From contig JAZAMN010000048.1 of NCBI GenBank assembly GCA_036229005.1, forward strand, positions 1-64,000: a stretch of DNA of 64,000 nt. Reading direction: 5' to 3'. Below, in pieces: positions 23,622 to 48,174 of the stretch; the first letter of the stretch is position 1, and the number at the start of each line of letters is the position of its first letter. A program made the position numbers and the translations under genes. Below the pieces are notes generated by a model. That model saw nothing but the letters and a program-made list of their open reading frames with translations, was not told where the DNA came from and searched no databases. Source of the stretch: Myxococcota bacterium (lineage in GTDB: Bacteria > Myxococcota_A > UBA796 > CAJQPC01).

Positions 23622-24788
23622 ATGCCCTTTCTGACCCTGCTGCTCGCCTGTGAGCAGCCCCTGGTGCAGGCCCCCGACCCGGGCTCCTGGACGGACCTGG
23701 ACCTCGAGGTCGGCGTCGCCGGTCAGCCCGTCGGGCCCCACTCCACGCTCTACAGCGACGGAGATTGGAGCATCCGAGGCCCGGCTGGTGGCACCCAGGA
23801 GATCCTCACCGGCCCCTGGCAGCCCGAGCTCCTGGACGCCAGCGGCCAGCCCGTCGCCCTGGTCAACAGCCCCTTCACCTCCCACTGGGAGCCCTACGTC
23901 CAGGACACCGACCACAACGACTGGGCCCCCCGCTGGATCGCCCCCGCCGGCCTCACCCCCGGCGAGACCTACAGCTTCTCCAGCCTGTTCTTGGACGGCG
24001 ACCCGGCCCAGCCCTACCCGCTGGACGGCGAGCTCTCCTTCACCGTCGCCGAGCTGGCCCCCGACACCTTCTCTCTGGAGGAGGGAGATGTCTTCCGCGT
24101 CGAGGGATACCGGCTCAACGTCCTGGACTCCATCCTGCAGGCCTACGGCACAAGCTGGCTGCGCATCGGCCAGGTCACCGAGTCGCAGGTCCGCATGGAG
24201 CTGATCATCGAGTCCGACTTCCGCTGCCGGGCCGTCAACGCCTGGGTGGATCGGGATGGCGACAGCCTCCGCTGGCAGACCCAGGAGATCCGCCTCCCCT
24301 ACAGCCAAGACATCGAGCTTGTCGGCCAGGGCATCTTCGTGGATCTGCCCCTGAGCGCCGACGGCGACTTCATCGCCGGCCAGGCCAGCATGACCGTCCA
24401 GGCCGCCGGCTTCGATGCGCTCATGGCCGCGTCCAACGACGACTGGCAGGACGGCGAGCTCTGCGATCTCATCGCCGGCTTTGGGGCCTCCTGCTTCCCC
24501 TGCCTGGAGGGCGAGGGCGAGTGCCGACACTTCTACGTGTCCGATCTGCATGCGGTTGCCCTCGCTGACGCCGAGGCTGCTGCGTTTGATGAGGACCTGC
24601 CCACCTGCGGGGTGGACGCGAGCAGCCTCGAGCTCCCCGTCATCGACCTCTCCGGCCTGGACCTGGACTGCGGCTGCACCACCGCCGCGGGCTTCTCCTC
24701 CGCCTCCCTGGGCTGGCTCGCTCTGGCCCTGGTGCGGACGCGACGGCGCAAGAAGCGCAAGGGCGGGGAGGACGGGAAGCAGGCATGA
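23622..24788 (+). CDS. Secreted/lipoprotein with MYXO-CTERM-like tail
   Basis: LLLAC N-terminus; C-terminal CGC-TM-RRRKK. Confidence 0.75.
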   Translation: MPFLTLLLACEQPLVQAPDPGSWTDLDLEVGVAGQPVGPHSTLYSDGDWSIRGPAGGTQEILTGPWQPELLDASGQPVALVNSPFTSHWEPYVQDTDHNDWAPRWIAPAGLTPGETYSFSSLFLDGDPAQPYPLDGELSFTVAELAPDTFSLEEGDVFRVEGYRLNVLDSILQAYGTSWLRIGQVTESQVRMELIIESDFRCRAVNAWVDRDGDSLRWQTQEIRLPYSQDIELVGQGIFVDLPLSADGDFIAGQASMTVQAAGFDALMAASNDDWQDGELCDLIAGFGASCFPCLEGEGECRHFYVSDLHAVALADAEAAAFDEDLPTCGVDASSLELPVIDLSGLDLDCGCTTAAGFSSASLGWLALALVRTRRRKKRKGGEDGKQA

Positions 24789-25871
24789 GCGTCCTGCTCC
24801 TGGCCCTCGCCTGCGGGGAGGAGCTGGCTGACAGCGGGCAGCTCCTGTCCTCGGAGGTGGCGGAGCTTCGGCCCGCCCAGCGAGCCGCTCCCCACAGCAC
24901 GCTCGCGGCCGACGTGCTCACCATCCGAATGGCCCCCACCGGCGAGGAGCTCGACCTCAGCGAGCGCTGGGCCCCCGCCGTCCAGGACCCGCACGGCGTC
25001 CAGGTGGTCTTGGCGCCCTACCCCTCGGAGGACGCCTTCATCGAGCACCTGTACCCACTCCCTGAGGGGCTTCGGCCTCCGGTGCTGAGCTGGCAGGCCG
25101 CCGATGGGCTCACTCCGGGCGCCTACCAAGTCCTGGGCGTGACGGCTCCGGGCGGCCAGCTCCATGGCTTCTCGTCCCCCATGGAGTTTGAGGTGCAGGC
25201 CCTCGCCGTGAATCTAGACGGCCTGGAGGCAGGGCAGGTCTGGGAGGTTGAGCACTGGATCGGAGAGGAGTGGTCCAGACTGGCGCTGTCCCACTTGCGG
25301 TTCTTCATCCGCATCGCAGCGGCGCGAAGGGAGCAGGTCGACGTCCAGCTACTGGCATCCTCCGGCGGGCCACCTTGCGGTGTGGTCGCCCTGTCCATGG
25401 ACCGCGATGGCGGGGAGCTGCGCTGGTCGAGGCGGGCCCTGACCTTGCCGGTGCGGAACAGCGAGCCCATTGCGCTGATGGGCATGGAGCTGCTGCTCCC
25501 CATCTCGGAGGGGGGCGAGATCGCAGCAGGCCGGGCGCAGCTCCTCGCCGAAGCTGCCGGTCTCGATGCGGCCATGGGGGTCAACACCCCGGAGTGGGAG
25601 GCCGGGGACCTCTGCGCGCTCACCCAGAGCTGCCTCCCCTGCTCCGACCCCGAGCTGGACTGTCTCCCCGTTCACATCAGCGACGTCTGGGCCTCTCCCC
25701 TGTCCTCGGATGAGCTCGCGGCCTTCGACGGCCAGGAGATCCAGTCCTGTCAGGCGGACGCCCAGGCCCTCCCCGTCCTGGACTGCGGCTGCACCACCGC
25801 CGCGGGCTTCTCCTCCGCCTCCCTCGGCTGGCTCGCTCTGGCCCTGGTGCGGACGCGACGGCGCAAGAAGC
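24662..25871 (+). repeat. 95-bp direct repeat (24662-24756 and 25777-25871)
   Basis: 94/95 identical; the single mismatch is at 24710/25825. Confidence 0.9.
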
Positions 25872-29893: not shown

Positions 29894-30103
29894 GAGCTCC
29901 TGGGCATGCGAGACCACACACAGATCCTTGGCGTCCTCCTGGGCACCGCAGTCGGCGACGCCCTGGGCCTCCCCTTCGAGGGCCTCTCCCCCCGACGCAT
30001 CGCCCGGCTGGCGCACAGGCCCCGTGCCGGGGCAAGACTGCGCCACCAGTTCTTCCTCCGCCGGGGCATGGTCTCCGACGACACCGAGCACAGCGCCCTC
30101 CTA

Positions 30104-30275
30104 GTTCTGCCGGTCCGAAGTCACAACACGGAATAGTCCGGCAGAACGCCGGGCCCGAGTGGGCCCGCGGGGGTGCGCCGGAGGCGCATTCCGGGGGTGT
30201 CCCCCGGAGAAGACAATAGTTCTCTGAATCGCAAGTCCCGCCACCAAGGGTGTTGGGACTTGCGATTCAGAGAAC
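30104..30275. mobile_element. 172-bp non-autonomous structured element (MITE-like), copy 1, flanked by TA...TA
   Basis: Ends GTTCT...AGAAC, five hairpins. Removing it plus one TA restores the reading frame (HSALL|AAALAAS). Confidence 0.85.
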
Positions 30276-30498
30276 TAGCCGCCGCGCTGGCCGCCTCCAG
30301 CGACCCCGTGGACTTCCAGCGGCGCTTCGCCCGCCGCCTCCGCGCTTGGTTCTGGACCCTCCCCGCCGGCATCGGCATGGGGACCCTCCGGGCCTGCCCG
30401 CGCCTGAGCGTCGGCGTCTCACCGGAGCGCTCCGGCGTCGACTCCGCTGGCAACGGCCCAGCCATGCGCAGCGCGCTGCTCGGCGTGGCCCTCCAGTG

Positions 30499-30676
30499 GT
30501 TCTGCCGGTCCGAAAATGCAGGCAAGGAGAGCGTCCGGCAGAACCCGGGCCCGAGTGGGCCCGCGGGGGTTGCGCCGTCAGGCGCACTTCCGGGGGTGTC
30601 CCCCGGAGAAGACAACAGTTCTCTGCAGCACGAGTTCCGACACTCGAAGGGTGTCGGAACTTGTGATTCGGAGAAC
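30499..30676. mobile_element. 178-bp structured element, copy 2, flanked by TG...TG
   Basis: Same ends and same five-hairpin layout as copy 1, with diverged loops. Confidence 0.85.
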
Positions 30677-31363
30677 TGGTACAGATCCCCGCCTACGTCT
30701 CCGCGGCGACCACCCTCACCCACACAGACCCCCGTGCGGAGTCCGGCGCCCTGGCCGTGGCCCTCGCGGCCCACCACCTGGCCCGGGGTGTCCACGGCCC
30801 CGAGCTCTTGAGCGTGGTCGCCGAGGCCCTGGAGGAGCCGGAACTCCGCGCCCTGATCCACCAGGCCGCCGACCTGGCCCTCCAGCCCGCCCCCGTCCCT
30901 GCCCTCATCCAGGCCCTTGGCCTGGAGGCCGGCGTCACCGGCTTCGTCAGCCACACCGTCCCCGTCGCCCTCACCCTGGCAGCGATCGCCCCCGACTTCC
31001 CCTCCGCCATCGAGCGGGCCATCGCCCTGGGGGGTGACACAGACACCGTCGCCGCCATCGTGGGCGCCCTGTGCGGGGCGCGCTTCGGGCCCGACGCCAT
31101 CCCCCCGGAGTGGGTCGCAGGCATCCGTGACTGGCCCCTGTCGGTGCCCAAGCTCAAGGCCCTCGCGGCGGCCCTGGCGGAGGGAACGCCGCCCCCCCGG
31201 ATCTCCTGGTTCGGCAGCCTGCTGCGCAACCTGGGGGTGTTCATGCCGCTGGTGTTTGGGCACTTGGGGCGGCGGGCGTTGCCGCCGTATTGAGGGTGGG
31301 CAGATCGAGCCGACCGGCCACGGCGGGGACGACGGTGGCTCAATCTGATCCCCAGTCCCTCGG

Positions 31364-47538: not shown

Positions 47539-48174
47539 ATGACCACCCTGACCCTTGGGCTCTTGAGCGCGCTGCTTGGCTGTGAGGCCGACTGCGCCGC
47601 TGGATTTGGCCGCGCTTCGGACGGCAACTGCTACCCCCTGGAGGACACCGCTGGGGAGGAGGGCGACGCTGACACCGACGCGGACGCGGACGCCGATGCA
47701 GACGCGGACGCGGACGCCGACTCGGACTCCGATGCGGACGCCGACGCCGACGCGGATGCGGACGCCGACTCGGACTCCGACGCGGACGCCGATCCCGAGA
47801 ACTGCCCCTCGGACCTCACCGCCATCTGCGGCACCCTCTCCGGCACCAACCCCAACGCCGCGCTCTCCGTGGTCGCGCTGACCAGCGCCGAAGCGGAGTC
47901 CCCCTCCGGCGTGTACTTCGTCACCCCCGAAGACGCGGAGCTGTGGGCCTGGCCGGCCAGCTACAGCATCTTCACCCAGTTCGACGAGTCCAACCCCGAA
48001 GACGACAGCACGCCCCTGCCCCCGGGTGAGTACGTGGTGGGCTTCGCGGTGGACGAGAACGGCGACGGCCAGCCCAACCCGGACGACGGGATCAGCCTGT
48101 ACGACGGCGGGAACACGATCACGGTCGAGTCGAACGTGCCCACCACGGGCATCGACTTCACCTACCCCTTCTGA
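47539..48174 (+). CDS. Lipoprotein with Asp-Ala/Asp-Ser repeat linker
   Basis: LLGC lipobox, (DA/DS)n at ~47664-47793, DENGDG loop. Confidence 0.8.
   Translation: MTTLTLGLLSALLGCEADCAAGFGRASDGNCYPLEDTAGEEGDADTDADADADADADADADSDSDADADADADADADSDSDADADPENCPSDLTAICGTLSGTNPNAALSVVALTSAEAESPSGVYFVTPEDAELWAWPASYSIFTQFDESNPEDDSTPLPPGEYVVGFAVDENGDGQPNPDDGISLYDGGNTITVESNVPTTGIDFTYPF

Follow-up and report, generated by a model that had tools for sequence, protein, structure and literature searches.

The window analysed here, a stretch of 64,000 nucleotides from the genome of a Myxococcota bacterium (G000; 6.4 Mb, assembly 94% complete), contains an ADP-ribosylglycohydrolase gene (PF03747) that is interrupted by two copies of a short non-coding element and split into three pieces on the forward strand. 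The first piece lies at 29906..30103 (PF03747 positions 1-57, E 1.5e-11), the second between the two copies at about 30275..30499 (PF03747 60-136, E 4.4e-9), and the third at about 30677..31293 (PF03747 146-287, E 1.1e-26). This host gene was the sole family match beneath the copies, and its pieces surround both of them, so the initial annotation was wrong in stating that no ORF lies nearby. Copy 1 carries an in-frame stop.

Copy 1 (30104..30275, 172 bp) belongs to subfamily A and copy 2 (30499..30676, 178 bp) to subfamily B of a family of elements 172-180 bp in size, and both lie on the forward strand. All five hairpins previously described (H1 to H5) were found at their claimed positions in both copies. 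In copy 1, a left terminal inverted repeat (TIR) of about 26 bp (30104..30129) makes up the 5' arm and the "loop" of H1, and the 3' arm of H1 lies at 30138..30147 in inverted orientation. The central core (30151..30218) comprises H2 (30151-30166), a G run, H3 (30174-30188), H4 (30190-30208), and an A-rich linker that leads into a TA. In H5 (30219..30275), the right TIR (30250-30275) pairs with an internal copy of itself. The H5 stem is perfect over 21 bp, as had been claimed, with pair 22 being the first that is not Watson-Crick, and copy 1 shows repair at three positions that are mismatched in its subfamily. Copy 1 is flanked by TA on the left (30102..30103), which from the sequence appears to be a target-site duplication, and by TA on the right (30276..30277), which pairs with the internal TA at 30217-30218. 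Copy 2 is built of the same parts (left TIR 30499-30524; core 30547-30617; H5 30618-30676) and is flanked by TG at 30497..30498, where the adjoining upstream bases also differ from the empty allele described below, and by TG at 30677..30678, the complement of the internal CA at 30616-30617.

The element ends read TA-GTTCT...AGAAC-TA. Ten bp of the left end recur in inverted orientation as the 3' arm of H1, and the 5' arm of H5 repeats the whole right TIR, with TA in front of it. The TIRs are imperfect, ungapped, and about 26 bp long, with left/right identities of 19/26 in subfamily A, 14/26 in B, and 16/26 in C (18/26 for copy 1 against its own right end); the TIR of subfamily B is weak (shuffle p 0.05). 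We compared positions 11-26 of the left ends with the right ends and found a mean identity, out of 16 positions, of 12.3 for A against A (cross pairs 7.5-9.3) and of 9.8 for C against C (cross pairs 7.5-8.3), while B showed no inner match to its own right end (6.0 of 16). Because these positions match the right end of their own subfamily in A and C, though not in B, the H1 "loop" is the inner half of the TIR. The earlier description of the loops as diverging is therefore misleading for H1.

The genome contains 22 near-full copies of the family, 18 full-length and 4 truncated, which can be grouped into subfamilies A (n=8), B (n=5), and C (n=9). The mean numbers of differences from the subfamily majority sequence are ~2, ~11, and ~5, respectively. 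Internally deleted derivatives retain the ends, the smallest being 36 bp (at C1), and derivatives with both ends but without the core were found at C1, C31, and C30. Tandem pairs occur at C62 and C74, with TG or CA as the spacing dinucleotide. A solo left-type TIR was observed in an intergenic position at C31:291485 (reverse strand), with neither a transposase nor a partner end behind it. Beyond this genome, a search for the exact element in 40 relatives returned just 3 weak partial matches, the H4-linker pattern was found in 0 of 181 class genomes, and searches of the genome contig collection, viral contigs, and plasmids and phages gave 0 matches. A metagenome scan with H1 uncovered 120 loci, none of them with the remaining element (best profile E 0.017), and Rfam returned 8 weak matches, the best at 29 bits, all far under the gathering cut-offs.

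To describe the insertion sites, we analyzed the dinucleotides next to both ends, taking gene ends from a codon-bias gene caller made for this analysis. At the H5 end, TA comes next in 19 of 23 cases, and in 18 of the 23 the stop of a predicted gene is formed there, a bias far above the null of 0.119 given by the share of stop TAs among TA sites that are non-coding or in stops (p 4e-13). At the H1 end, TA precedes the element in 9 of 23 cases, and a stop is formed at 3 of the 23. Fourteen of 22 loci lie between convergent genes. Identical flanking dinucleotides were found at 8 of the 20 G000 loci with both ends, and TA flanks either end of all four complete copies of subfamily A. The flanks at the H1 end that are not TA are mostly CTG (8) or CCA (1), together 9 of 14. 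Of 32 copies in relatives for which the two ends were found, 24 (16/18 and 8/14) are flanked by TA left and right. The flanks at C1, C14, and C56 do not fit a duplication of 3 or 4 bp. From these flanks we infer a duplication of TA that later decayed. CTAG is the lowest 4-mer of the genome (observed/expected 0.067 genome-wide and 0.32 in intergenic regions), and TAG stops after C are rare (136, versus 2598 for TGA). Since CTAG is the most depleted 4-mer, decay of the junction would explain the TG flanks of the older copies. A Vsr gene, which would have explained the erosion of CTAG, was not found in G000. At five further loci with older or divergent elements (C37:35372, C68:107, C16:36685, C46:3025, and C18:46364), the interior of the terminal hairpin complements 4-6 nt of the last codons of the host gene, and these loci look as if the stem had extended into the flank.

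The window stretch was also found in marine metagenome runs; no RNA dataset was among the listed holders of it. In run X4, one contig of 5062 nt lacks both window copies. Its joints connect 30102 to 30278 (with an added G) and 30494 to 30676 (with an added CC), and the reading frame is kept at both. Run X2 has filled alleles at the window sites. Conversely, the flank of an element in X4 exactly matches G000 at C14:97336, 11 nt past a TAG, where no element is present; this was the one exact match among four loose ends tried. The empty-site alleles that the initial annotation had proposed to look for thus exist at both window sites in X4 and seemingly, for an X4-filled site, in G000. The occurrence of empty and filled alleles in different runs shows that the insertions are strain-variable. 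At both window sites the empty allele of X4 reads CTGG, not CTAG, which requires that the site eroded in X4 or that the element went into TG. For the window sites, an alternative to TA insertion and decay is that the copies entered at TG and that their arms were later corrected against each other. One CTG-type locus is filled and unchanged in X2, X4, and X7, meaning that erosion in progress was not observed.

Other features of the window were noted in passing. The C run at 31191, close to the 3' end of the ADP-ribosylglycohydrolase gene, is longer by one C in X2 and X4, so the last codons of their allele may differ. An HNH_2 endonuclease gene (PF13391; 31364-32320, reverse strand) directly follows the broken gene and weakly matches PADLOC models of HNH and type IV REase. 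The X2 and X4 contigs no longer fit from 31306 onwards, which suggests that the HNH_2 gene may be strain-specific. Elsewhere in the window, two neighbouring genes share a 95-bp tail that is 99% identical (24662-24756 and 25777-25871) and that presumably encodes a C-terminal sorting-like motif. A coding tandem repeat of 81-bp Cys-rich units lies at 1283-1785, and a coding tandem run of Asp-Ala/Asp-Ser at 47640-47816.

The genes of transposase type in G000 are two IS110 genes, IS4, IS630, and IS3-like genes, and five RAYT-like genes, and the ends of the element are absent from all of these loci. The resident IS630 (at C3) was rejected as a partner because its ends match copy 1 at only 7 and 5 of 26 positions. 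IS630 elements prefer CTAG targets, and the flanks of the C3 element fit this preference. A matrix of the element ends was then run over 79 transposase loci and scored high at two places in one of them, L243, in a genome of the same family (G012). L243 is an IS630 of 1358 bp with two overlapping ORFs (NF033545, 102 bits against a cut-off of 100). It is flanked by CTA on the left and TAG on the right, and it also sits on a TAG stop. Copy 1 matches L243 at 19/26 positions left to left and at 18/26 right to right, compared with 14 and 15 when the ends are crossed. Copy 2 matches at 14/26 on the left and 19/26 on the right, and subfamily C matches poorly (12/26 and 16/26). For positions 5-26 of copy 1 the shuffle p-values were 2.5e-5 and 9.5e-4, which are optimistic because L243 was picked from the 79 loci by a matrix of these very ends. 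An end pattern joining the element and L243 matched 20 of 181 other class genomes, and transposases 53-61% identical to L243 were found at 5 of 18 loci examined. The cognate transposase itself is missing from the 94%-complete assembly, in which tblastn matched only the unrelated C3 IS630 (26-28%), and a larger element with these ends was not found among the contig ends listed.

Taken together, the ends, the TA flanks, and the match to L243 suggest that the elements are likely IS630-dependent MITEs. The earlier reading of a non-autonomous mobile family is borne out by the 22 near-full copies, the empty allele, and the ends matching an IS630, and among the transposase leads then proposed it is the IS630 lead that received support, from a complete element in a related genome. 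Readings based on a bridge RNA, IS91, or an integron were dropped after the TIRs and the TA duplication had been seen.

We favor, with a probability of about 0.85, the following account of how the family moves and persists. An IS630-family transposase supplied in trans would cut the element out and paste it into TA, duplicating the TA. Each end begins with G, so that an element inserted at the TA of a TAG would rebuild the stop. Insertions that rebuild a stop would survive, and most insertions within genes would be purged. The downstream junction would then always be CTAG and would decay to CTGG or CCAG. H1 and H5 would each represent an end folded on its internal inverted copy, with the two arms kept in step by template switching, and the "compensatory" changes would come from this process. 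The H2-H3-H4 core may be an inherited module, probably retained as a stable 3' structure in the transcripts of the flanking genes, most of which are convergent; this is the weakest step of the account.

The initial annotation had proposed that the folded strand is under selection beyond what a TIR-bearing MITE needs, and the strongest competing explanation takes up this idea: the folded plus strand of the whole element, as RNA or ssDNA, would be under direct functional selection, and the IS630 ends would only carry it. Such selection is compatible with transposition, and we regard it as possible though clearly the less probable account. Folding is strong in both window copies (z-scores -10.4 and -8.6; 0 of 200 shuffles as good), and the plus strand folds better in 18 of 18 copies, both as RNA and as DNA, although these 18 copies represent only about three independent lineages. 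The pairs of H5 that are not Watson-Crick comprise 46 G-T, 8 A-C, and 22 others. Strand-biased deamination was considered as the origin of the G-T pairs and found no support in the counts of A>G (18), C>T (6), T>C (19), and G>A (18). The two covarying H5 pairs named before are real (columns 139/173 and 145/167). Across 13 of the 18 aligned full-length copies, both members vary in 10 of 59 pairs, an outcome seen in 0 of 500 shuffles, with relatedness ignored. Nine of these pairs are in H5 and one is in H2, and within the genome covariation is lacking from H1, H3, and H4, which corrects the earlier general claim that the stems co-vary.

The private changes in H5 of the 18 copies argue against strict selection on the pairing: 19 break a pair, compared with 6 double compensations, 6 repairs, and 2 wobbles. 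The 19 breaks beside 12 compensated or repaired changes fit arm-to-arm template switching better than strict selection on each copy. Template switching is known to perfect inverted-repeat arms in bacteria (PMC5941160, excerpt). The host-side dinucleotide also covaries with its internal partner in copy 2, at C62, and at C20:43199. The derivatives at C1, C31, and C30, which have both ends but no core, also speak against selection on the whole folded strand. Selection beyond the needs of a TIR-bearing MITE thus loses the part of its case that rests on H1 and H5, which are fold-backs of the TIRs, with H5 pairs broken more often than kept and double changes explained by template switching. The part that stands is the persistence of the layout and of the H3/H4 core from genus to genus in altered sequence, which goes beyond what a bare TIR MITE requires.

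This persistence was seen in five more genomes of the order, G011 (two families), G138, G007, G127, and G093, which have the same five-hairpin layout with changed H3 and H4. The two families of G011 are ~198 bp long and the single family of G138 is ~171 bp, with the hairpins in the same order and scant sequence match to the G000 family outside the core (right ends were not found at 4 of 16 loci of the first G011 family). With a covariance model restricted to the core, matches were obtained in 5 of 140 other genomes of the order, including G007, G127, and G093, which had not been used in building it. The core matches read in these three genomes lie within TA-flanked elements with fold-back ends, not counting the G007 locus L334, which was left out, and L337 and L345, for which ends were not found. 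The pairing of H3 and H4 is kept across genera despite the changed sequence. The ends of the G093 elements resemble another IS630, L298 (18/26). The preference of the H5 end for stops is present in G011, and in G007 and G138 this end rarely closes a long open frame. G007 shows no strand preference and G093 shows the opposite one, which counts against selection on the plus strand. Outside the family, core-like units were found at 30 intergenic places in G000, compared with 0-3 in shuffles; however, the reversed control gave 19 matches. A canonical terminator was not found.

It is conceivable, at rather long odds, that the core is a portable module, either an RNA 3'-end protector or an ssDNA site for a host factor, shared by at least seven MITE families in the order that swap IS630 ends, and that selection has favored the folding of each TIR onto its internal copy as a means of controlling transposase access or of shielding the 3' end of the host gene. 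As a separate observation, a core of G run, hairpin, G-C hairpin, and A-rich stretch occurs in other intergenic repeats of G000, often in arrays (C43:28100-28900, C2:82000-83200, C54, C71:197600-199000, C17, C35, and C11:39952). Several of these repeats start at a TAG stop followed by TT, and IS3-like and IS4 copies adjoin such repeats.

A REPIN-like element moved as ssDNA by an HUH enzyme (RAYT/TnpA), with (G/C)T(A/G)G as a REP-like head, is very unlikely. The ends do read (G/C)TAG-TTCT, GTAG REP ends often supply TAG stops (PMC3733652, excerpt), and the genome has five RAYT-like genes, which fall under the family cut-off. However, the HUH/RAYT lead was not sustained: there was no PF01797 match in the genome, and none of the five genes has the element within ~1 kb, three of them lying between tandem arrays of a different type. 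An invariant GTAG head is lacking; the TA derives from the host, and the first base varies with the host codon (C, G, T, or A). In addition, TnpA-REP cleaves at CT or CA (PMC8266576, excerpt), and the 26-bp TIRs match an IS630. By the features described for RAYT and REPIN in the available portions of PMC3733652, PMC3116915, PMC6006769, and PMC8266576, membership in this group is hardly tenable. The five RAYT-like HUH genes (L145-L149, at C27, C21, C32, C24, and C52) are paralogous, and each has GGTGTC/GACACC inverted motifs before it. An array of 31-bp units in two inverted blocks lies in the window at 1751-2039, and similar units flank the RAYT-like gene on C24.

An equally improbable reading is movement by another enzyme family, either an IS110 recombinase that uses a 2-nt core or an IS5/IS701 enzyme that targets YTAR, with the mixture of TG and TA arising from exchange of the core. 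It would suit the mixed flanks, the TG or CA between tandem copies, the CTGG empty alleles, and the two resident IS110 genes, but the IS110 and IS4 loci of G000 lack such ends, which leaves the IS110 lead without a partner, IS5 N-terminal domains were absent from 4 genomes of the genus and IS701 and IS1182 domains from G000, most copies in relatives have clean TA/TA flanks, and the 3- or 4-bp duplication fails at the three loci given above. A multi-copy IS110 (C4:147349-148863 and the ends of C5, C22, and C42) was observed to begin a few bases past TGA stops.

We compared the family with known systems, drawing on the available portions of the cited papers. Features of IS630-type MITEs found here are a length under 500 bp without a transposase ORF, dispersed copies, TIRs of 24-30 bp, TA duplication, a TIR match to an autonomous IS630, and filled and empty alleles; among the features compared, a cognate transposase in the same assembly is the one lacking. 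The classic MITE of the IS630 kind is RUP of Streptococcus pneumoniae, which with IS630-Spn1 shares a non-coding length of 100-200 bp, TA termini, IS630-like TIRs, intergenic location, and a stable predicted structure (PMC2229807, excerpt). Unlike RUP, the present elements are GC-rich, fold each TIR on its own internal copy rather than the 5' end on the 3' end, have a three-hairpin core and a strong bias towards TAG stops, and lack a cognate IS in the assembly. IS630 elements insert at TA, duplicate it, and have imperfect inverted repeats of ~24 bp, and by description the present elements share with ISY100 imperfect inverted repeats of 24-26 bp and a duplicated TA target, but ISY100 encodes its transposase (PMC2170065, excerpt). 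L243 is placed in NF033545. The CIR repeats of Caulobacter and Brucella share two independently folding terminal arms, a linker, and TA termini (PMC2229807, excerpt), but they are ~110 bp long with a GANTC motif that was not noticed here, whereas a transposase family could be assigned to our elements. ERIC and Correia/NEMIS are likewise TA-flanked MITEs and affect the mRNA of adjacent genes by RNA structure, an effect shown in those systems (PMC2229807, excerpt); unlike the present family, they have a single long stem and are AT-rich. GTAG-REPs and REPINs with RAYT are also hairpin repeats at gene 3' ends that often supply a TAG stop (PMC3733652, PMC3116915, and PMC8266576, excerpts), in contrast to which our elements have no invariant GTAG head and no adjacent RAYT, and carry a TA duplication and IS630-type TIRs. 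IS200/IS605 derivatives are characterized by subterminal hairpins, a conserved target of 4-5 nt without duplication, and a Y1 TnpA, and the elements depart from them with regard to terminal hairpins, TA duplication, and the missing PF01797 match, and from IS110/IS1111 in that their ends are not shared with the resident IS110.

The family probably consists of IS630-type MITEs, set apart by their doubly folded-back ends and conserved core. The family and its core appear to be undescribed: no description was found in the literature searched, including two MITE reviews (PMC10969869 and PMC3184786), although supplements may list such MITEs. The match at both ends would tie this MITE lineage to a specific IS630 group. 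The family would also provide a clean case of persistence, in which insertion at TA rebuilds a TAG stop and the junction then decays, and it suggests that compensatory changes in DNA hairpins can arise by template switching and not by selection on RNA.
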